Origin: an uncultured Gammaproteobacteria bacterium | GTDB taxonomy: Bacteria; Pseudomonadota; Gammaproteobacteria; Arenicellales; CAJQKF01 | DNA: 64,000 bases | NCBI GenBank assembly: GCA_905478855.1 | Contig: CAJQKF010000034.1 | Coordinates: 2,633-66,632 of the forward strand | Direction: 5' to 3' | In this document: in pieces, positions 732-59,993 of the stretch | Position numbering within the stretch: the stretch's first letter is position 1 | Layout of the letters: the number at the start of each line of letters is the position of its first letter | Translations under genes and position numbers: made by a program | Notes under the pieces: generated by a model | What the model was told of the DNA's origin: nothing | What the model saw: the letters and a program-made list of their open reading frames with translations, nothing else | The model's database searches: none

Positions 732-1715
732 ATGACAAAAATCGCGATTATTGGCGCAGGCTTATCCGGCCTATCGATTGCGCATTTATTAAAAGATTAT
801 GCGCAGATCACTGTTTTTGAGAAAGCCCGTGGTGTGAGTGGCCGGTTGTCAACGCGACGAGCTGAACCGTATGTTTTTGACCACGGTGCACAATATTTCA
901 CAGCTCGAACACAAGTTTTTCAAGATTTCATCCAACCGTTTATCAAACAAGGCATTATTGAGCGTTGGAATGCCCGTTACGTAAAGTTTGATGATGATGA
1001 AATCGTTGAGCAAAAAAACTGGGTTGATGATGAGCCTCGTTATGTAGGCGTGCCACAAATGAACAAAGTTGCAAAATATCTGGCTGCAGGATTGAATGTT
1101 CATGTCAATACGCGAATTGTGTCTCTGGAACATGAAAAGTCATGGAAACTTATCGATGAAAAGGGTCACCTATATAATGATTTCGACTGGGTGATTTCTG
1201 CAGTACCTTCCCCCCAGGCAGCTGAGCTCCTGCCTTCAGCCTTTGCATACCATGCTAATATCTGTGCTATAGAAATGCGTGCTTGCTTTTCCCTTATGTT
1301 GGGTTTTTCGGAGCGCTTGCCGCTCGACTTTGAGGCTGCGCATGTCACTAATTCTGATTTAAGCTGGATTGCGATCAATAGCCAAAAGCCAGGACGCGTT
1401 GATCAATATACTCTGATGGTACATTCCTCTGGTGACTATGCGGAAGCGCATATCGATGATGATCGGGAAGCGGTTATGCAGCATCTTATTGCTCAAACAA
1501 GCCGCATCATTGGACATGATGTCAGCACGGCTGACTATAAAACCGTTCATGGTTGGCGCTATGCCAATAATGCGAAACGTGAAATCAGTCCCGTATTTTT
1601 AGATCAAAACCTAAAACTAGCCGCATGCGGTGATTGGTGCCTCGGCGGACGTGTCGAAGGCGCATTTACTTCATCTCACAGGCTTTTTTGCGCTATGCGA
1701 GAGCTTGCGTTGTGA
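732..1715 (+). CDS. NAD/FAD-dependent oxidoreductase (renalase-like, COG3380-type)
   Basis: The ORF 696-1715 most likely starts at ATG 732 (MTKIAIIGAGLSGLSIAHLL), which gives a GxGxxG dinucleotide-binding N-terminus followed by RGVSGRLSTRR and HGAQYFTA motifs. Its last ~180 nt are duplicated at 5499-5680. Confidence 0.75.
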   Translation: MTKIAIIGAGLSGLSIAHLLKDYAQITVFEKARGVSGRLSTRRAEPYVFDHGAQYFTARTQVFQDFIQPFIKQGIIERWNARYVKFDDDEIVEQKNWVDDEPRYVGVPQMNKVAKYLAAGLNVHVNTRIVSLEHEKSWKLIDEKGHLYNDFDWVISAVPSPQAAELLPSAFAYHANICAIEMRACFSLMLGFSERLPLDFEAAHVTNSDLSWIAINSQKPGRVDQYTLMVHSSGDYAEAHIDDDREAVMQHLIAQTSRIIGHDVSTADYKTVHGWRYANNAKREISPVFLDQNLKLAACGDWCLGGRVEGAFTSSHRLFCAMRELAL

Positions 1716-1773
1716 GCGTGGAGCTGAAAATGTCGTTGTAATTGGTACACCGAATGGGATTGGAGGTTTTATT
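1538..1773 (+). repeat. left direct repeat (attL-like): 3' end of the oxidoreductase gene plus ~58 nt downstream
   Basis: Aligned by eye with 5499-5733. There are 3 substitutions up to the stop codon (1715). The ~58 nt downstream of the stop is more diverged: two further substitutions, a short diverged block containing a 1-nt indel, then the shared end GGATTGGAGGTTTTATT. Confidence 0.9.
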
Positions 1774-1953
1774 TCCACGCGTTTTTTTACGTTCTCTAAT
1801 CGGACAATTTCTCATCGTTTTTGTTATAAAAATCATTTATGGTGCAAATATGCTGCAATTGTCCCGTGTTTGCTACCCTGTTAGCTTCTGAGCGACACCT
1901 AGTTGTATCTGTTTTCACTGGGAGAGTTCGTAACGCTAGCTACGAGATCCACC

Positions 1954-2541
1954 ATGGCGGCCATTCATAGAATTAAGACCAGTTCTGGCGCAATCAGATA
2001 CCGCGCACAAATACGCCGCAAAGGCTACCCTACGATGTCCAAGAATTTCCCAACCAAAGCCGCTGCGCGGGAATGGGCTAGAGGGGTTGAGCTAGATATC
2101 GCAACCGCTGCGGCTAAATTTAAACCTGATGTTGAGAAACACACTTTCTCAGAATTAATTGGTCGCTATATCGAAGACGCCCAACCAAGTAAAGATCAGA
2201 TCCGGCATATTAGGTGGTGGGACAAACATCTAGGCCATAAGTTGCTCCACGATCTGAAATTATCAGATTTCAAAGAGGCCCGACGGATCTTACAAAAAGA
2301 ACCCAAACAATTGGGGGGTGTCCGAGTGCAGACGCTAAAGCAGCCACGCACTCCCGCTACAGTTAATCGCTATTGCACCGCAGCCAGTGTTGTACTTAAT
2401 TATGGCACGGGAAAGAATGACGGGCCTGATGGCTGGTTAGACCGCAACCCAATGCGATCCCTTGGCAAACTAAAAGAGAGCAAATGTCAGGACGTCAGAT
2501 TGAACTTGCAGCTACACAGGAGAAAAAGAAGCATGGTTTAG
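1954..2541 (+). pseudogene. tyrosine-type site-specific integrase, N-terminal fragment only (arm-binding and core-binding regions; catalytic domain missing)
   Basis: MAAIHRIKTSSGAIRYRAQIRRKGY...ATVNRYCTAASVVLNY...NPMRSLGKLKESK is typical of the N-terminal third of phage/island integrases. The frame ends at 2541, and no R-H-R-Y catalytic domain appears in any frame downstream. Confidence 0.7.
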
Positions 2542-2818
2542 TTACTCGACTTAATAGTAATGTGTCTGGTGGGCTAAGTGGTGATCAATTTTACGTCTAC
2601 GTGGCAAATAGGTTGGTAATGCCAAACTTGAAGAAAGACGATTTGGGGAAATTTACTACGGGTGATAGCCGTTTCGGTGGATGTGAAATTACGGTAGTAT
2701 TATAGCGTTACTTCTTGGGCTTCCCTGTGATTTTATGGTTTTTCTGCAACTACGATTTTTCGAAAGCCAAGAGAGTGCCGTATGTTTTTAGTTTCTTCTC
2801 GAGGCCGCTGTCAGAATT

Positions 2819-5017
2819 ATGGGAAAAAAAGCAAGCATTTTTTTTGCAGTACTCCAAGGAGACAAGGTTCTTTCAAAAAAGCTCGACTCCACCCTGAAAC
2901 AAGTTGATGAATATCACTATGCGTTGTTTGATTCCGGTAATGGACGTTATTATCGGATTAACAATTCCTCAGCACTGATTTGGTCTTGCCTGGTTTTAGG
3001 AGATACTCTTTGTACCCTGTTCAGGAAACTGAACGAGAAACTGGATGCCGGCATTGATTCACAAGTCGTTGAAGATACGCTTGCTGTGCTTCATCATTTC
3101 GAAAGAAGAAAACTCATAAGGTATAGGCCAACTGTAAACTTAGAGGCTGAAGCTGAAAAACACCTCAGGCAGCGGATGCGAGAGGAAAAGAAGAGCGAAA
3201 GAGCTAAGTGGAAAAGTGTCAAAAGCTCACCGAAGCCAGTTGAAGTGATTCCGGAAGGTAAATACAGAGATGAAAAGCCAGGCACAGATAGTCGATATGC
3301 TATTATAAGTCATCGCAGAAGTGGCACCCACTTCCTGTGGGAAGTGATGCGACAAAACCTGGGGGTTGGCTTGGTGCCGGGTCAGTGTCTATGGGATATT
3401 CCCAAGATTCACGACCTGTTTTCTGCAAAACTTCTGCAGCGAATCAAGGATCGAAAAAGCCTATATATAATGCGGGATATAAGAGCCGTTTTGGTTGCGA
3501 ACTATAACTATTGGAAAAATGGCGAAAAAAGATACAACCTATCAGAAGTATTTCAGAAAATACCGTTGTCCAGTTATATACGGGGAGATATACCACTCGA
3601 TGGTGTTCCTGATGAATTAAGAGCTGAAGCGGAACAACTTTTCTCTGATCCAATTGAGTATTGGATCAGACATACAGAATGGTCAAAGCACGTGTTTACC
3701 ATTCGCTACGAAGACCTGAAAAGCAACGAAAAACATACAGTATCAAAGATAGCAAATTACCTTGGTATAAAATTTGATCCGCAAGATTACAAAGAACTTA
3801 TAAAGCTGGTGGGGCATCTTCCGCAGAAAGGAAAAATTAGCGCCTGGAGAGATGTTTTCACTGATGATGATCTAAGATTTATTTGGTCAAAAGTAGGTCA
3901 AAGGATGGAAGAACTCGGATATTCCGAGGATATAACTCACGCATGCCCTGAATCCAAGAGTGTTGAAACTAGGAACCACATTGTGCCAAATAATATTTTG
4001 GGTGGCGATGTAGAGTCTCAAATACGTTTTCGAATGGGTCGTTTTTTTGCTCCTGCAGCCTTGCCCGGCGATGAATGGGTATCTCGAGTTCCTGCTGGTC
4101 ATCATTTTTTGCAGTTTGAACATGGTGAGTTAAGAAGTGTAAGTGGGCCAGAGCAGCGTGGCATTCATCGACTGGGTAAATTCAAGGAGATGCTTGAAAA
4201 ACTTAAAATACCTAAATCACCTTTCTCTTTGGAGTTTTCCTGCGGAGACGCCGCAGCACAGCATGAAGTTAATCCAATTCACGGCCATTTCAGGGTTACC
4301 GGATCCGACGCAACAATTCTTTGGCCTTTGGCGGGGTATACGGATATTAATTCAAAAATCTTCGGAAAAAATGTGGGAAAGCATGATTGTTCTTGGGATG
4401 AAAAAATCGAGATTGCTGTATGGCGAGGGACGTCATCAGGTACGTCTTGGCAAAACAAGACGATTGATCAAATAGAAGAATGTATCAACAGGGCTTTGTC
4501 AGCGACTGATCGATTTGGAGGAAAGGTCTTGGCTAAAGGAAACCGACTTACCTTGGTTTCCCGATATTATGATGCCAAGTTTGTCGACGTCGGATTGTCA
4601 AAAACAGGGCAAACCGATGGTATTGCAAAGGCCTATTTCACCAAGCGGAATTTCTTAAAGTCAAGACTATCCGACTCAGAACTTTTGCGATACAAGTATC
4701 AAATTGTTGTCGACGGTAACACGTTTGCTTCCCAACTGCCTTGGACTCTGCATTGTGCAAGTGTGATTCTTATGGTTCCACCATCTTGGGAGTCAATTAT
4801 TGCTGGAATTAGACCTTGGCAGCATTTTGTTCCTCTGGCGCCGGATTACTCCGATCTGGAGGAGAAGGTAGACTGGTGTCGCGCTCACGATACTGAATGT
4901 CAAGAAATTTCAGCTGCCGCCACTCGATTGATGCGGTGCTACTATGACCCGCAAACAGAGCAGCAGATACAACAGGGATTGCTCGAGCAATACACTCAGA
5001 ATTATTTCAGCATATAG
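2819..5017 (+). CDS. three-domain fusion protein: PqqD/RRE-like domain, sulfotransferase domain, glycosyltransferase family 90 (CAP10/POGLUT-like) domain
   Basis: aa ~32-101: YALFDSGNGRYYRINNSSALIWSCLVLGDTL...VVEDTLAVLHHFERRKLI follows the PqqD pattern. aa ~159-370: SHRRSGTHFLWEVM (5'-PSB loop), LYIMRDIRAVLVANYNYW, IRYEDLKSNEKH..IANYLGI and KGKISAWRDVFTDDD are sulfotransferase motifs. aa ~430-732: WRGTSSG, KYQIVVDGNTFASQLPWTLHCASVILMV and HFVPLAPDYSDLEEKVDWC are GT90/CAP10 motifs. Confidence 0.7.
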   Translation: MGKKASIFFAVLQGDKVLSKKLDSTLKQVDEYHYALFDSGNGRYYRINNSSALIWSCLVLGDTLCTLFRKLNEKLDAGIDSQVVEDTLAVLHHFERRKLIRYRPTVNLEAEAEKHLRQRMREEKKSERAKWKSVKSSPKPVEVIPEGKYRDEKPGTDSRYAIISHRRSGTHFLWEVMRQNLGVGLVPGQCLWDIPKIHDLFSAKLLQRIKDRKSLYIMRDIRAVLVANYNYWKNGEKRYNLSEVFQKIPLSSYIRGDIPLDGVPDELRAEAEQLFSDPIEYWIRHTEWSKHVFTIRYEDLKSNEKHTVSKIANYLGIKFDPQDYKELIKLVGHLPQKGKISAWRDVFTDDDLRFIWSKVGQRMEELGYSEDITHACPESKSVETRNHIVPNNILGGDVESQIRFRMGRFFAPAALPGDEWVSRVPAGHHFLQFEHGELRSVSGPEQRGIHRLGKFKEMLEKLKIPKSPFSLEFSCGDAAAQHEVNPIHGHFRVTGSDATILWPLAGYTDINSKIFGKNVGKHDCSWDEKIEIAVWRGTSSGTSWQNKTIDQIEECINRALSATDRFGGKVLAKGNRLTLVSRYYDAKFVDVGLSKTGQTDGIAKAYFTKRNFLKSRLSDSELLRYKYQIVVDGNTFASQLPWTLHCASVILMVPPSWESIIAGIRPWQHFVPLAPDYSDLEEKVDWCRAHDTECQEISAAATRLMRCYYDPQTEQQIQQGLLEQYTQNYFSI

Positions 5018-5498
5018 ACTTTAGTAACGGCTTTTCAGCTGATTAGGATCATCGAAGCGCAGCGAGCCACTTCTGATTAGCAGAACTCCCGCTATCAGTC
5101 TTTATCGGTGGATATGTTTTGACGGTGTATGATTCATAATATAGCACCTACGCCTAGTACTGACGAATGATCTTTTGAGTACATAGTGAGTTGCAAAACC
5201 CAAGGGTTTTGCAATCCCTACCCTGTTAATTTTCGGATATGGGGCGGGCTTGGTTTCAGAAGCAAACTGTTTTTGTGGTTCTCTCCTTTTGCGGTCGGAT
5301 AGATAGCTTGAACAGTTATAAGTTGTTCTCGAAATTTCTTTTTGAAATTACGCTTTCCTTGGGGGCGTCTGGGTAGCCTGAACTGAATTGCATTTTTAAT
5401 CCTAGCCATGGGATACAAGTGGGTTTTCTTAGATAGCTCATGCGGTAGGTGAGCCAGCAATAAATATCTAACGATAGCGGCGAACGCTTAAGTAATTT

Positions 5499-5733
5499 TA
5501 AAACCGTTCATGGTTGGCGCTATGCCAATAATGCCAAACGTGAAATCAGTCCCGTATTTTTAGATCAAAACCTAAAGCTAGCCGCATTCGGTGATTGGTG
5601 CCTCGGCGGACGTGTCGAAGGCGCATTTACTTCATCTCACAGGCTTTTTTGCGCTATGCGAGAGCTTGCGTTGTGAGCGTGGAGCTGAAAATGTTGTTAT
5701 AATTGGGCTTCGGAGGGGATTGGAGGTTTTATT
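5499..5733 (+). repeat. right direct repeat (attR-like): displaced copy of the oxidoreductase 3' end
   Basis: Near-identical to 1538-1773. It would encode ...NNAKREISPVFLDQNLKLAAFGDWCLGG..., with one Cys-to-Phe difference from the intact copy, but has no upstream coding continuation. Confidence 0.9.
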
Positions 5734-5998
5734 GTCAATTTGATCTGACCTTAATTAAACCAGCGCTTACTGCAAAATATTTCTCGCTCAAATTATCCAC
5801 AGCGAGTTATTAAAATGAATTGCTCTTTCTACACAAGTCGGAGTGTTATGGGTAGTATTCACGAACCATGAGTCCGCTAGACCTTACTCTGAGAGTTACC
5901 TAGAAAGAAAGTCTACGGACTCGGTAACCGAAGGACTCGCGGCAATAATCAACCGCGACAGGTGCAGTTGATTCTCTTCTGAGCGGTTTTTCTTTTGC

Positions 5999-6283
5999 TT
6001 ATAGGGAGAAAACCACATCACCAGCATGGGGATGAATTGCATCGCCATCGACGATACCTGCTTCAATCATTTTACCAAATGCCATTTTCGCGAGGCCATC
6101 GGCTGCTTCTCTGGCGGCTGCATCAGGATATTTGGCAACAACAACGCCTTTACCATTGCCATAAGAAACGATGTCGATGAAATCGGCACCAATGTCTTTA
6201 AGCATTTCGCGCAAGCCCTCTGCCGTTTCAGCCACTTTGTCCATATCGGATGAAGCAAAACGTGTAATTCTGTAGACTGACAT
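5999..6283 (-). CDS. small hypothetical protein (94 aa)
   Basis: Clean ORF, MSVYRITRFASSDMDKVAETAEGLREMLKD.... No family recognised with certainty; it may have a small alpha/beta ferredoxin-like fold. Confidence 0.45.
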   Translation of the reverse strand: MSVYRITRFASSDMDKVAETAEGLREMLKDIGADFIDIVSYGNGKGVVVAKYPDAAAREAADGLAKMAFGKMIEAGIVDGDAIHPHAGDVVFSL

Positions 6284-6460
6284 ATAACCCTCGTGATTTT
6301 ATTTTTGTTATGTGGATCATTCCACACAAGCAGCCGATTATAGGCTGTGGATAATAGATAGTACACGGGCTACTTTTAGAAACCTTGTAATTATATATTT
6401 CATAAATTAGGTGAATGCGTGTCTGCTAAAATCACTTGCTTGGCTTTATAAACTACGAAA

Positions 6461-7498
6461 CTAACGCCAACTAAGAACGACCTTACCACTGCTACCCTTT
6501 AACATTTGCTTGAAACCTGTTTCAAATTCACTCGCTGGTAGACGATGGGTAATCACACCTCTGATGTCAAGTCCATTTTGAATCATTGCAATCATTTTGT
6601 ACCAGGTCTCAAATATTTCCCGACCGTATACGCCTTTAATTGTTATGGCCTTAAAAACAATTCGTGACCAGTCCACACTCGATTTACCCGCAGGTACACC
6701 GAGTAGGGCGACATTTCCGCCCATTACTAGCGTTTCGATCATTTGATCTAAGGCCAGTTGATTCCCGGACATCTCCAGGCCCACGTCAAAGCCTTGCTTT
6801 AAACCCAATTCAGCGGTGACATCATTGAGATCCTCTTTTAATGGATTAACGGCACGCACATCCGCAACTTTTTCAGCGAGCTGTAATCGATCGTCATTTA
6901 CATCGGTAATTACTACATTACGGGCGCCGACATGTTTTGCAACAGCCGCAGCCATAATGCCAATTGGGCCTGCACCAGTAATTAAAACATCTTCGCCGAT
7001 AAGGTTGAAGCTAAGTGCTGTATGCACAGCATTACCTAATGGATCTAAAATTGAGCCGATTTCGTCGTCGATGTCATCAGGTAACGGCACTACATTAAAT
7101 GCAGGGAGTTTTAAGTATTCGGCGAAGGCGCCGGGCTCGTTCACGCCTATACCTCGTGTTCCGGGATCTAGGTGAAATTTCCCAGAGCGCGATTGTCTTG
7201 AATTTTTACCAATTAGATGTCCTTCACCTGAGCAACGTTGGCCGACTGATAAGTCAGTAACAGCCGAGCCTAGTTCAACTATTTCTCCACTGAACTCGTG
7301 CCCGATGATGAGCGGCACCGGTATAGTTTTTTGAGCCCACTCATCCCAGTTCCAGATATGTAGATCCGTTCCACAAATAGCGGTTTTATTAATGCGTATC
7401 AGTACATCTTCTGCACCAATTTCGGGGATCGGTCGTGTCTCTCGCCAGATGCCGGGTTCAGCTTTCGATTTGACTAACGCATGCATAGTTTTGTTCAT
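6461..7498 (-). CDS. tdh: L-threonine 3-dehydrogenase
   Basis: [64 protein letters not shown] is collinear with E. coli Tdh. Its ATGA overlaps the upstream kbl, the canonical kbl-tdh operon arrangement. Confidence 0.95.
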
Positions 7499-8697
7499 GA
7501 TAAAACACCGGTTTGACGTCCTGCCTGTGCGAAGGCATTTAACGCAAAGTCCAGATCATCTCGACTTAATGCTGCGTTCATTTGAGTTCTTATTCTGGCT
7601 TCCCCATCTGGAACAACTGGATAAAAGAAACCTGACACATAAACCCCGCGTTCAAACAAATTCTCTGCCATAGTTTGAGCAAGCTGTGCATCGCCGAGCA
7701 TTACCGGCACAATCGGATGGTTACCGGGTTTTAAATCGAAGCCAAGATCGCTCAATCCATTTCGCCAGTACTGTGTATTACTAAATAATTGTTGCCGAAG
7801 ATGATCACCCTCTTCGATTAGTTTTAGTGCGGTTAGTCCAGCTTTAACCACCATGGGTGGAAGTGAGTTTGAAAATAAATAGGGTCGCGCGCGTTGGCGT
7901 AGCATGTCAATAACTGACTGAGGCCCGGCAACGTATCCACCGATGGCACCGCCCAGGGCTTTGCCTAAAGTTCCAGTAAGAATATCCACATCCACATTGA
8001 AATGTGCTGCAGTACCCTGTCCCTTAGGCCCCATAAAGCCGGTGGCATGGCAATCATCTACCATGACCAGTGCATTATAGGCGTGGGCCAGTCGTGTTAT
8101 CTCGGGTAAGTTAGCTAAGTAGCCGTCCATGGAAAACACACCATCTGTTGCTATCATGACAAAGCGCGCGCCATCGTTTTTCGCTTCCTGTAGTTTTTTC
8201 TCCAGATCTTCCATATTGGAGTTTGCGTATCTATATCGTTTCGCTTTGCATAAGCGAATGCCATCGATAATTGAAGCGTGATTGAGCGAGTCGGACACAA
8301 TGGCATCTTGTGGCCCCAGTAAGGGTTCAAATAGCCCGCCATTTGCGTCAAAACAGGCTGCAAAAAGAATAGAGTCGTCTTTACCGAGAAATGCAGCCAA
8401 GCGTTGTTCGAGCTGTCTGTGAATATCTTGTGTACCGCAAATAAAACGAACTGATGCCATGCCATAGCCGTATTCATCCAAACCTTCTTTTGCGGCGGCT
8501 ATCAGCTTAGGGTGATCGGCTAGTCCTAGATAGTTATTTGCGCACAAATTGATAACGTTTTGTTTAATTTGCTCGTTCTCAGAAACATCAATATGTCCAC
8601 CTTGGGGGGAAACTATCGGGCGCTAAATCTTGTATAAACCTTTATTCTTTATCTCGTTTAAAGAATTCAGAAGGTGTTCCAGAAAAGGCTTAGTCAT
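7495..8697 (-). CDS. kbl: 2-amino-3-ketobutyrate CoA ligase (glycine C-acetyltransferase), interrupted by one in-frame TAG at 8623-8625 (possible pseudogene or sequencing error)
   Basis: [12 protein letters not shown]...[12 protein letters not shown]...FSMDG...GTLGKALGG is collinear with E. coli Kbl. ATG 8697 gives [33 protein letters not shown].. in the same frame. The full length would be 400 aa. Confidence 0.85.
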
Positions 8698-9422: not shown

Positions 9423-10568
9423 ATGTATTCCCAGCGATTGGATAACCTTAGACGTAGACTGGCTGAGCAAGGGGTTGATGTAGCAATCATCACCGATGAT
9501 GACAGTGTTTATTATCTCACCGGGTACTATGATTACTTGCACATGGAATTCGGGCGGCCAACTATATTGATTGTACCCAGAGATGGTAAAAGTTTACTTA
9601 TTACCCCAACCATTGATTTGGTCATGGCCGAGTCGAGCGCCAATGTTGATCGTATTGCTGCTTGGAACGATGGTGCAGGCAATGAGTGGCGCGAGGAATT
9701 ACCCGAGGCCTTAAGCGCCGCGGCCTGTATTGCCTTAGAACCTGATCATATGCCGCCCATGGTGCGCGCATATATCGACGCACTCATTCAGTCGAAAATA
9801 CATAAAAGTGTGACGTCCATTCTTGCCGATATGCGAATGGTTAAGTCGACTCAAGAATTACAGCTGGCACGCCACGCCGGTGAGGTAGCCGGTGCCATGA
9901 TGGCGGCTGGACGAAATGCTATTGGTGATGGTGTGCCAGAATATGAAGTAGCCCTCGCCACATCTGCAGCCGGTACGCGCAAAGCTGCTGAGCTATTAGC
10001 GGCACATTACGACGACACGGCCATGTCACCGAATACCCATTTTCTGCAGATCATGGCGTCTGGTGAAGAAATAGTAAAAACCCATCACCGTGCCACTACA
10101 CGTATTATGCGTCGGGGTGAACCGGTTTTTCTATGTTTTTGTGGTATGACCAATTTTCATCGTTTTAAGCTTGGCTTTGATCGAACATTCTGGATTGGTG
10201 AGATCGCTGATAGTCGTCAGGCTGAAATTTATGAGGTTGCCGCTGCCAGTCAGCAGGCGGCGCTTGGCGTACTCAAACCCGGGGTAACAGCGGAATCCGT
10301 ACATTCCGCTTATGCTGAGGTTATTCAGGGTGCAGGCTTTGATTATCCGTTCAGATGCGGCCGCGCAACGGGCTTTAGCTTTCTAGAAAAACCACAACTG
10401 GTAACGGGTGATAAAACAATTTTGCAGCCCGGTATGGTTTTAGCTGTTGATGGCTCGGTGGCAATTGATTCTTTTCGTGCGCAAGTAGGTGATAGTTTTA
10501 TTCTCAACGAACATGGCTATGAGCAAATTACCCATCACTCGAAATCGATCGACAATATAGTTTTATAG
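9423..10568 (+). CDS. M24 family metallohydrolase (Xaa-Pro dipeptidase / creatinase / ectoine-hydrolase-like)
   Basis: The layout is a creatinase-type N-domain plus a pita-bread C-domain (..MRMVKSTQELQLARHAGEVAGAMM.., ..GMVLAVDG..). Substrate cannot be assigned from sequence. Confidence 0.7.
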   Translation: MYSQRLDNLRRRLAEQGVDVAIITDDDSVYYLTGYYDYLHMEFGRPTILIVPRDGKSLLITPTIDLVMAESSANVDRIAAWNDGAGNEWREELPEALSAAACIALEPDHMPPMVRAYIDALIQSKIHKSVTSILADMRMVKSTQELQLARHAGEVAGAMMAAGRNAIGDGVPEYEVALATSAAGTRKAAELLAAHYDDTAMSPNTHFLQIMASGEEIVKTHHRATTRIMRRGEPVFLCFCGMTNFHRFKLGFDRTFWIGEIADSRQAEIYEVAAASQQAALGVLKPGVTAESVHSAYAEVIQGAGFDYPFRCGRATGFSFLEKPQLVTGDKTILQPGMVLAVDGSVAIDSFRAQVGDSFILNEHGYEQITHHSKSIDNIVL

Positions 10569-55709: not shown

Positions 55710-55786
<77 letters not shown>

Positions 55787-57904: not shown

Positions 57905-58558
57905 ATGTTTACCGGAATGAATCGAGTCGAAGAACAAAACATTGGACTGGTGCCAATGGTTGTAGAAACCACTGGGCGTGGTGAGAGAGCCTATGACATC
58001 TACTCCAGAATGCTTAAGGAGCGTGTCATATTTTTGGTCGGACAAGTTGAAGATCAGATGGCAAATTTGATCGTAGCTCAACTGCTTTTTCTTGAATCCG
58101 AAAATCCAGAGAAAGATATTAGTATTTACGTTAATAGTCCTGGTGGAGTGGTAAGTGCCGGTTTGGCAATTTACGATACTATGCAGTTTATTCGTCCAGA
58201 TGTTAGCACCGTTTGCATAGGACAGGCCGCGAGTATGGGTGCGGTTATACTCGCCGGTGGTGCCGCAGGGAAAAGACATGCTTTACCGAATGCCAGAGTT
58301 ATGGTGCATCAGCCCTGGGGCGGATTTCAGGGGCAGGCTACCGATATTGATATCCATGCGCGGGAAATTCTTAAGTTAAAGAGTCGTTTAAACGGTATTC
58401 TTGCTGAACATTCAGGTAAGGATGTTGACCAAATTGAAAATGATACTGAACGAGACAACTTTATGTCGGCTGAAGACGCTAAAAACTATGGTTTGATCGA
58501 TACTGTTATCGAAAGACGACCCAGCGACGACAAAACAACGGCTCCTGAACAGAAGTAG
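57905..58558 (+). CDS. clpP: ATP-dependent Clp protease proteolytic subunit
   Basis: [46 protein letters not shown] and MVHQP motifs. Confidence 0.97.
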
Positions 58559-58715
58559 AAATCTCGATTTTTATTTCGATTTTGGTTTGTTGTTGTGAAA
58601 ACGGTTGGTTAGGCTTGCATTTTTACCGTAAATTCTGCATCTTTAGAACAACGATCCGAAAGGAATTTTTAAATCAGGATTTTTCCTGCGAACATATTTA
58701 AGTACTGAGTTTAAA

Positions 58716-59993
58716 ATGGCAGAAGATACCGGCGAAAGAAAAGGCGATAAGCTGCTCTATTGTTCTTTTTGTGGGAAAAGTCAGCACGAGGTCAGGAAAC
58801 TGATTGCGGGTCCATCCGTGTTCGTATGCGACGAATGTGTGGAACTGTGTAACGAGATAATTCGCGAAGAAGCTGCGGAAGTTGCAGAAGGTCAAACCCG
58901 TGAAACAGGCACACCTACACCACGTGAAATTTGTGAAAAACTTGATGACTATGTGATTGGTCAGGAAGAAGCAAAGAAAATATTGTCAGTAGCCGTTTAT
59001 AACCACTATAAGCGAATTGATAATGAAGACGGTGGGGTAAATGATGTTGATATTTCAAAAAGCAACATATTAATGATTGGCCCTACCGGATCCGGCAAGA
59101 CACTGCTTGCCGAGACACTCGCTAAGCAGTTAAATGTTCCATTTACAATTGCTGATGCGACAACCTTAACCGAAGCTGGTTACGTTGGCGAAGACGTTGA
59201 GAATATTATTCAAAAACTACTTCAAAAATGCGATTACGAAGTTGAGAAAGCCCAGATGGGTATCGTATATATCGATGAGATCGATAAGATTTCTCGAAAA
59301 TCGGATAATCCTTCGATAACACGTGATGTATCCGGTGAAGGTGTTCAACAGGCTTTGTTAAAACTAATCGAAGGCACGGTGGCTTCAGTTCCTCCACAGG
59401 GTGGTCGTAAACATCCTCAGCAGGAATTTCTGCAAGTAGACACTCGAAACGTTTTATTTATATGTGGTGGTGCGTTTGCAGGTCTGGAAAAAGTAATTCA
59501 ATCCAGAACCGAAAAATCAGGAATCGGATTTTCGGCTGACATTCGTTCGAAAAGCTCAGAAGAGCGTGTTGGTGAATTGATCGCCGATCTCGAACCTGAA
59601 GATTTAATTCGCTTTGGCTTGATACCTGAATTTGTTGGCCGATTACCTATCGTTGCGACCTTAACTGAATTGGATGAAGAGGCGCTGATAACGATCTTAT
59701 CTGAGCCCAAAAACGCCCTTGTAAAACAGTATCAAAAGTTATTTGAGATGGAAGGCGTAGTGCTCGAAATTCGATCGGATGCGCTTAGCGCAATTGCCAA
59801 GAAGGCAATGGATCGTCGAACCGGTGCTCGCGGTCTGCGGTCGATATTGGAAAACGCTTTGCTAGATACGATGTATGATTTGCCGTCGATGGAAAATGTT
59901 CAGAAGGTTAGCGTTGATGCAAGTGTTATTAACGATGGTGCGAAGCCTTTATTCGTATTACAAGAAGATCAAAAGAGCGGCACTGATAACTAA
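58716..59993 (+). CDS. clpX: ATP-dependent Clp protease ATP-binding subunit ClpX
   Basis: Zinc-binding [24 protein letters not shown], Walker [12 protein letters not shown], and [10 protein letters not shown]. Confidence 0.97.

Follow-up and report, generated by a model that had tools for sequence, protein, structure and literature searches.

The stretch of DNA analysed here, hereafter the window, comprises 64,000 nucleotides (nt) of contig CAJQKF010000034.1 (positions 2,633 to 66,632 of the forward strand; assembly GCA_905478855.1) from an uncultured member of the Gammaproteobacteria (Arenicellales, CAJQKF01). Close to its left end it carries an island of about 4 kb, which lies at the 3' end of a gene for a renalase-like oxidoreductase. 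Very probably, the island is what remains, in degenerate form, of a small integrative element, which would have entered the chromosome by a Campbell-type recombination, bringing with it a replacement for the gene end that it displaced. The evidence for this consists of a direct repeat of the renalase gene end on either side of the inserted DNA, an N-terminal fragment of a tyrosine integrase just inside the left copy, and an island-free allele of the same locus. The coordinates of all features, which refer to the window throughout, are collected in Table 1.

The renalase gene and its repeated end

The open reading frame (ORF) at 732-1715 matches renalase structures in the PDB (4zcc and 3kkj, E 2e-50) and bears the JGI name 'renalase'; it has 1,997 homologues at E <= 1e-60, and the nearest one from beyond this population is 76% identical. 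The gene is intact because its codons 270-327 are supplied by the left copy of a direct repeat, 1538-1773 versus 5499-5733 (236 and 235 bp, 95% identity), which was delimited with a repeat finder and by pairwise alignment. The repeat finder splits the pair into a segment of 208 nt (1538-1745 versus 5499-5706, 98%) and one of 23 nt (1751-1773 versus 5711-5733, 91%), with a start-to-start spacing of 3961 and 3960, respectively.

Pairwise alignment of the two copies locates three substitutions (left/right) in the coding part, namely 1574 G/C, 1616 A/G and 1627 G/T, and two in the part corresponding to the 3' untranslated region (UTR), 1734 C/T and 1738 G/A. These are followed by a diverged block of 10 nt with a 1-nt indel at 1746-1755, which reads TACACCGAAT on the left and GCTTCGGAG on the right, and then by 18 identical bases, GGGATTGGAGGTTTTATT (1756-1773), after which similarity stops abruptly. 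Read in frame, the right copy gives K270...L327 and a stop, with Phe in the place of Cys299, and a stop codon stands immediately 5' of this orphan frame. The original prediction, which had been made from the letters of the window alone, was accurate in every detail about the repeat (near-identical copies, three coding substitutions, a diverged end with a 1-nt indel); its statements that the left copy completes the oxidoreductase ORF, and that the right one is an orphan end with a Cys-to-Phe change, are borne out by the ORF and by the in-frame translation.

On the evidence of the alignment, a 236-bp match at 95% identity cannot be a product of chance. The 3,961 bp between the repeat starts are a discrete insertion, a remnant, ~4 kb in length, of a mobile element. 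In addition to the integrase fragment, it contains an unannotated ORF of 73 codons (ORF73) and one large cargo gene.

An island-free allele in the same population

The exact renalase protein was found on 23 contigs from marine metagenomes, deposited at JGI and ENA and derived from both MEGAHIT-style and scaffold-style assemblies. The integrase fragment, ORF73, the cargo gene and the right flank were present on nine of the nine contigs for which DNA was available and on one more that is listed without DNA, and one further JGI contig is also island-bearing. Among the contigs retrieved through the flanking 94-aa ORF and through variants of tdh, all those that reach past the repeat carry the island, and the shorter ones stop before the repeat or break inside it.

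One contig, L042 (ENA ERZ23497033, 4,731 bp), is island-free, and its renalase gene is followed after 323 nt by the 94-aa ORF. It aligns to 1-1773 of the window, and then with its positions 4028-4731 to 5499-6202, so that in a three-way alignment the repeat occurs once in L042 and leads directly into the right flank (5734 onward). This is the empty site whose existence had been predicted, with the gene running directly into 5734 onward. The renalase of L042 (P0123) is the sole other member of the renalase 90% cluster and differs by H316Y; upstream of the repeat, over 1-1537, L042 and the window show one difference. Within the repeat, L042 has two private alleles, C at 1589 and T at 1677 (the latter encoding Tyr316), neither of which occurs in any copy of the 10 island-bearing sequences, and its combination of C1574, A1616 and G1627 exists in neither repeat copy. 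The private alleles therefore point to a distinct allele, and a mis-join across a collapsed repeat appears unlikely. Several alleles of the L042 flanks (248T on the left; 5839T, 5933A, 5946A, 5963C and 5978G on the right) segregate among the island-bearing contigs, and L042 therefore belongs to the same recombining population. The island is polymorphic in this population, but predominant.

The derivation of L042 from the present occupied allele, by excision or deletion, was also considered and rejected, because its combination of C1574, Cys299 and Tyr316 cannot be reached by a single exchange between the two copies.

These contigs also bear on the idea that the arrangement arose without a mobile element, either as an artefact of assembly or through local segmental duplication. 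The repeat does interrupt metagenome assemblies, and two of the contigs, L135 and L138, end inside it. However, the two-copy arrangement recurs, with the same copy-specific differences, in JGI and ENA assemblies from several samples and assemblers, and the inserted DNA holds an integrase fragment and is absent as one unit from L042. We therefore regard this explanation as hardly credible; as to an artefact in particular, which had been foreseen as a way in which the prediction could fail, the recurrence of the arrangement in independent assemblies speaks directly against it.

The integrase fragment and its family

The integrase ORF (1954-2541) starts 181 nt inside attL. It matches the N-terminal part of the PHROG_1 'integrase' profile (E 2.5e-16) and has no match in Pfam. 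An exhaustive search returned 1,824 relatives at E <= 1e-3, and 250 were counted at E <= 1e-10. The full-length relatives (~355 aa) have the usual catalytic domain and align only to residues 1-176 of the ORF, with 32-55% identity over this region. When 38 relatives were compared with the window by tblastn, similarity ended at 2478-2505, and no remnant of a catalytic domain was detected anywhere in the 64 kb; the catalytic residues R..K..HxxR..Y are not present, as the alignment stops before the catalytic domain. Judging from these comparisons, the island integrase is dead, its catalytic domain having been lost. The prediction of an N-terminal fragment just inside the left repeat, devoid of its catalytic domain, is thus upheld by the PHROG_1 match and by tblastn. 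It had further been proposed that the island is probably fixed, which holds for its self-mobility, given the dead integrase, but not for its distribution, since L042 shows that the population still contains both states.

The closest full-length integrase, P0124 (358 aa, on a contig of 1.3 kb), is 55% identical over residues 1-176. An alignment of the fragment and P0124 was used as the query to search for integrase loci in metagenome contigs, and this search returned 80 loci, i.e. the island itself and 79 relatives with 31-57% identity (the family members examined were P0124, P0126, P0128, P0133 and loci L049-L127). In 44 of the first 60 of these 79 relatives, a tRNA gene on the same strand ends ~100-200 nt before int, the types found being Arg-CCG, Ser-CGA, Gly and Lys; in at least five of the other 16 (L062, L067, L077, L083 and L099), the 3' half of a tRNA is cut by the contig end. 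As far as these neighbourhoods tell, the family has the classic layout of islands in which int follows a tRNA gene, and the window conforms to it, except that a protein gene stands where the tRNA would be. The integrase fragment itself has no adjoining tRNA: its neighbour is the renalase gene, and the nearest tRNA in the window is at 55710, more than 50 kb away. As regards the relatives of the integrase that had been expected, many that adjoin tRNA genes were found, but no intact close one, P0124 being the best at 55%.

Tandem short repeats are found between the target and int in relatives too (ATGGCACAA twice in L043, TTGCCACA twice in the tRNA-Arg group), and the tandem ATGGTGCAA/ATGCTGCAA of the window may likewise represent arm-type sites.

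A separate observation concerns L044 (ENA HAWL17-1 scaffold_308079, 581 bp), which is 100% identical to 1846-2145 of the window; beyond integrase codon 64 its sequence becomes unrelated, and an ORF of 76 aa (P0125) results. The contig represents either another variant of the island, truncated at a different point, or a chimera of the assembly.

Position of the crossover

The diverged block at 1746-1755 is of the island type in attL and of the host type in both attR and the empty site. Because attL holds the island block, the crossover lay between 1538 and 1745, and at least the distal 28 nt of the gene-proximal copy are, on this reading of the alignment, DNA that came with the element. A core inside the 18-bp GGGATTGGAGGTTTTATT (1756-1773) was rejected, because attL would then hold the host block to the left of the core, and it holds the island block instead.

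Within the permitted interval, we tend to place the crossover at the 5' edge of the identity block, in part by analogy with the tRNA-targeting relatives, and favour the view that the element supplied the whole 59-codon end rather than the 3' UTR alone. Position 1574 is G in all left copies, and C in all right copies as well as in the empty allele. In addition, the divergence between L042 and the left copy, which is 1 difference in 1,537 bp upstream, becomes 3 in 208 bp from exactly 1538. The dyad AACC-N6-GGTT, read from the sequence at 1541-1554, is weak evidence in the same direction. The right copy is polymorphic between strains at the equivalents of 1603, 1734, 1738 and 1763, as seen in the table of single-nucleotide polymorphisms (SNPs), and its alleles at 1734, 1738 and 1763 co-vary with the haplotypes of the host flank (L031, L032); over this part, the right copy therefore consists of host DNA.

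Alternatively, the crossover may have lain in the 3' UTR immediately before the diverged block (TAATTGG at 1739-1745 is one candidate), so that the coding part of the left copy would be original, the gene would never have been interrupted, and the element would have carried a decayed renalase fragment of ~200 bp on its far arm. At 1616 and 1627, and in most strains also at 1734 and 1738, the left copy agrees with the empty site and the right one differs; exactly 7 identical bases separate the marker at 1738 from the block, which is a typical size for an overlap region; and Phe299 could not have belonged to a working gene, Cys being present in 119 of 120 homologues. However, 1734 and 1738 are polymorphic in the right copies, and L031 and L032 combine the 'left' alleles with alleles of the host flank. 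Position 1574 contradicts a crossover in the 3' UTR, and the divergence from the empty allele rises at 1538 and not at 1739. Moreover, this integrase family keeps the 3' part of its target on the int-proximal side, and why an element should carry 200 bp of its target on an arm where it restores nothing has no known explanation. On balance, we consider a crossover in the 3' UTR unlikely.

The orphan end deserves some comment in this respect. Cys299 is kept in 119 of 120 renalase homologues and in the empty allele, and Phe299 of the right copy is therefore a later decay. By the same comparison, Phe299 would have arisen in a non-functional copy under either position of the crossover, and the Cys299Phe change is probably inactivating. 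At position 316, Tyr, the state in 109 of 120 homologues, is ancestral, and His316 is derived.

It should be noted that, immediately after the renalase stop, the motif GCGTGGA can pair with TCCACGC, which consists of the first island-specific bases and is followed by a run of seven T. The fold z-score of this region (1717-1789) is only -1.96. The element thus seems to have provided the restored renalase gene with the distal half of a long hairpin resembling a terminator.

Proposed mechanism

With the crossover at the 5' edge, the history of the locus could be reconstructed as follows. The attachment region of the element would have been a segment of ~236 bp resembling the final 59 codons of the renalase gene and the 58 nt downstream, and would have recombined with the chromosomal gene between 1538 and 1745. 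The gene would now end in the element-borne copy, adjoining int, and the displaced chromosomal end would be the orphan 4 kb downstream, whose decay has begun with Cys299Phe. The recombinase would come from a family normally located just 3' of tRNA genes, of which this lineage would have switched to a protein gene. Later, the integrase would have lost everything past residue ~176, and from there the island presents ORF73 and the one large cargo gene. Self-mobility would be gone, although loss of the island by homologous recombination between the repeats would still be possible.

Two claims of the original prediction are to be read in this light. An element-borne 3' end of the target, in the manner of tRNA islands, is supported for the distal part by the block at 1746-1755 and by the family layout (44 of 60); for the whole 59-codon end it is favoured, short of proven. 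The right copy, which had been described as the displaced ancestral end, was, on the favoured reading, displaced, but not preserved unchanged, Phe299 being a later decay.

We infer that entry was mediated by the integrase rather than by RecA. In the opposite case, the integrase fragment would be a passenger, and a circular DNA with ~236 bp of renalase homology would have entered by a single crossover, or the entire occupied locus would have spread from strain to strain by means of its flanking homology. A near-identity of 208 bp suffices for RecA-dependent recombination, the mosaic haplotypes of the right flank testify to recombination in the population, the present integrase is dead, and some lineage-specific alleles are common to both repeat copies. 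On the other side, the order of gene and int, their spacing and the arm-like tandems match those of site-specific relatives, and homology that runs from inside a gene past its end is the signature of target-restoring integrase elements (PMC10111431); furthermore, the spread of an occupied locus would leave the first origin of the duplication unexplained. RecA-mediated entry is, in our opinion, quite improbable.

Several observations nevertheless weigh against integrase-mediated insertion with a replacement gene end. L042, with its 4.7 kb, is the only island-free contig found, and an exact gapped-pattern scan of the JGI metagenomes for the empty site gave 0 matches. The foreign compositional signal of the island is faint. 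It had been suggested that GC content and k-mer composition could set the island apart from its flanks; GC content is indistinct (43.7% for the island versus 43.8% for the window), and in its tetranucleotide composition the island departs from the remainder of the window more than 96% of same-size windows do (top 4%). The GC content at third codon positions is 48.5% for the integrase fragment versus 37-43% for host genes. The renalase loci of other species in GTDB (n=26) show no shared synteny and neither integrase nor cargo nearby. Upstream of P0124 lie the end of another gene and a terminator, without a tRNA, and no intact relative of the element was found beside a renalase gene. The left copy and the empty site agree at 1616 and 1627, where all right copies differ, an ambiguous pattern that fits decay of the orphan and equally a crossover 3' of 1627. 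Finally, the two copies share the derived His316 and T1589, as opposed to the empty allele; the shared His316 therefore calls for gene conversion between the copies, or for an element-borne copy derived from the same lineage.

Empty sites in other species were initially considered as evidence and dropped as uninformative, in view of the lack of synteny among GTDB renalase loci; the closest renalase in GTDB species genomes is 74% identical. As a side observation, homologues 57-74% identical (L001-L026) occur in metagenome-assembled genomes labelled Nitrospinaceae, Kordiimonadaceae, Endozoicomonas, Legionellaceae, Flavobacteriales, Rickettsiales and Burkholderiales, a spread that may reflect an unusually conserved gene, horizontal transfer or binning errors.

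Table 1. Features of the renalase locus and its island (window coordinates).
Feature	Position	Strand	Description
Renalase-like FAD/NAD(P) oxidoreductase, 327 aa	732-1715	+	Pfam Amino_oxidase/NAD_binding_8; codons 270-327 from left repeat copy
Left direct repeat (attL identity block)	1538-1773	+	Last 59 codons of renalase and 58 nt 3' of it; invariant in 10 island-bearing sequences
Island-specific block	1746-1755	+	TACACCGAAT in left copy; GCTTCGGAG in right copy and empty site (three-way alignment, SNP table)
Integrase-proximal arm (P' arm)	1774-1953	+	Tandem ATGGTGCAA/ATGCTGCAA at 1839-1858
Truncated tyrosine integrase	1954-2541	+	N-terminal ~176 residues homologous (arm-binding and core-binding region); PHROG_1
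ORF73, unannotated 73-codon ORF	2484-2705	+	Starts where integrase homology ends; overlaps end of integrase ORF; putative coding
Cargo gene, 732-aa fusion	2819-5017	+	PqqD-like (34-100), sulfotransferase (~210-330), GT90 glycosyltransferase (522-712); Pfam
Non-coding distal arm (P arm)	5018-5498	+	Hairpin and shared 11-mer; ORFs without a match
Right direct repeat (attR identity block)	5499-5733	+	Orphan gene end at 5500-5676 (58 codons and stop), Cys299Phe
Host right flank with 94-aa ORF (5999-6283)	5734-6283	-	Adjoins renalase gene directly in L042

Cargo gene, ORF73 and distal arm

The cargo protein combines three domains in Pfam, PqqD (E 1.6e-5; 25.6 bits, cutoff 23.4), sulfotransferase (E 3.6e-10) and GT90 (E 6.6e-18), and its match to the NCBIfam lasso-PqqD family falls below the cutoff. 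Its nearest solved relatives in the PDB are eukaryotic, i.e. POGLUT2 (1.3e-11), POGLUT1 (4e-6) and cytosolic SULT2 (~1e-3). A search of 5.8 billion clusters returned just four relatives beyond its own cluster: two are PqqD+GT90 proteins, 60% and 51% identical over the C-terminal half, and two are PqqD+sulfotransferase+GT25 proteins, 35% identical. The closest relative sits among ketosynthases, acyl carrier proteins, acyltransferases, LolA-like and MMPL proteins, in a lipid gene cluster of the aryl-polyene-like type, and another adjoins a sugar epimerase/dehydratase. Most likely, the enzyme modifies a lipid or glycan of the cell surface, a peptide being another conceivable substrate.

ORF73 has no match in Pfam, PHROG or NCBIfam and is conserved at 98.6-100% in other contigs. 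No gene similar to it was present beside the two cargo relatives whose neighbourhoods were inspected, and its role as a peptide substrate of the cargo enzyme finds little support. It is very improbable that ORF73 and the cargo gene would form a two-gene cassette for a sulfated and glycosylated peptide (a previously undescribed product resembling the ribosomally synthesized and post-translationally modified peptides), delivered by a retargeted integrase of the tRNA type.

In the distal arm, an ORF of 80 aa has no Pfam match. A perfect 11-bp hairpin lies at ~5190-5214 (z -4.5, no T-run) and is directly followed by the 11-mer CTACCCTGTTA at 5218-5228, which recurs at 1873-1883 in the integrase-proximal arm; the hairpin and the two CTACCCTGTTA copies may be candidate protein-binding sites of the former attP arms. 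An Rfam search of 1400-6400 found no family match, its single sub-threshold hit (18.6 bits, E 0.26) being inside the cargo gene, and scans of the island for tRNA genes and terminators gave nothing significant. As to phage structural, replication or regulatory genes, none was detected: PHROGs matched the integrase alone, and a scan for viral contigs returned one weak match.

Neighbouring genes and host population

The region just to the right of the island (5839-6710) is far more polymorphic than either the left flank or the island. Three contigs (L027, L136 and L138) show ~20 SNPs in less than 900 bp of this region versus 0-2 in 1-1537, and such mosaic haplotypes suggest frequent recombination beside the insertion.

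Two genes near the island are split in single contigs. In L030 (11983-13128, corresponding to 9423-10568 of the window), a gene for a creatinase/M24 peptidase is divided into ORFs of 145 and 223 aa, and in L042 a glutamine-cyclotransferase-like gene 5' of the renalase gene is divided into ORFs of 215 and 91 aa; these are either strain-specific pseudogenes or assembly errors. The aminotransferase gene at 7495-8547 (kbl-like), which adjoins tdh, is listed from a TTG at 350 aa, while its counterparts in contigs of other strains have 400 aa, and its true start is probably upstream of 8547.

The 90% clusters of ClpX and ClpP (57905-59993) hold this population only, and the contig recurs in many coastal marine metagenomes. 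The host is an abundant lineage without close relatives in the databases searched.

Significance

With its occupied and empty alleles, the locus offers a population-level example of an element that inserts in a protein gene, leaves it whole and afterwards degenerates at the site of insertion. It also illustrates how, in an integrase family associated with tRNA genes, one lineage has taken a protein gene as its target. The displaced end, with its probably inactivating change, would penalize later excision: as a consequence of the Cys299Phe decay, precise excision would be costly, and the island would be locked in independently of the loss of its integrase.

Current understanding is left unchanged by these results; both the mechanism and the repeat length are within the range known for icd and tRNA sites. 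Their practical yield is a mapped attB in a renalase-like gene and a rare PqqD-like/sulfotransferase/GT90 enzyme, carried as strain-variable cargo by an abundant uncultured marine bacterium; this cargo is possibly more interesting than the island itself.

Comparison with known islands

Direct repeats of 15-221 bp, with a mode of 20-25 bp, flank tRNA islands in Klebsiella (bioRxiv 10.1101/2020.11.02.365908), and repeats of 10-60 bp are typical of integrative and conjugative elements (PMC5812530). On the other hand, attP sites with a replacement gene end and identity blocks of up to ~250 bp have been described for icd and for tRNA genes (PMC10111431), and in E. coli K-12 the element e14 has icd on one side, with the gene reaching into the prophage, and the C-terminal pseudogene icdC on the other (PMC13626634). 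The original prediction had presented both the protein-gene target and the long att duplication as unusual, which is overstated, considering that blocks of ~250 bp and insertion in icd are on record (PMC10111431, PMC13626634).

The most direct parallel is with e14 and phage 21 in the E. coli icd gene, where a tyrosine-integrase element lies within the 3' part of a gene for a housekeeping enzyme (PMC13626634, PMC10111431). There, as here, the functional gene runs into the element, a C-terminal pseudogene is found at the far end, and the copies differ by a few substitutions. Unlike e14 and phage 21, the present element is ~4 kb long, has no phage genes and a truncated integrase, and targets a renalase-like oxidoreductase gene in an uncultured marine bacterium; in addition, the orphan end carries the probably inactivating Cys299Phe, while the chimera of icd and icdC is reportedly functional (PMC13626634).

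The order of target gene, int, cargo and repeat, as well as the restoration of the target by an element-borne copy, are shared with the tRNA-targeting islands, from which the present one differs in its protein-gene target and in its identity block of 236 bp. It also resembles the islands identified by TIGER/Islander at the 3' ends of protein genes (phage-inducible chromosomal islands and prophages in fis, hpt and icd), in which the block covers the gene terminus and can reach the terminator, and is up to ~250 bp long when the site lies well inside the gene (PMC10111431). Those islands are satellites or prophages of Enterobacteriaceae that are still intact and encode working integrases, unlike the decayed remnant described here, whose cargo is a single enzyme. 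Renalase was not found among the protein-gene targets named in the island literature consulted.

The length of 236 bp is at the long end of the documented range, protein-gene targets are well known, and the mechanism is a textbook one. What is particular here is the combination of a renalase homologue as the target, an integrase of a tRNA-associated family, an extreme reduction of the element, and a displaced gene end that has itself decayed.

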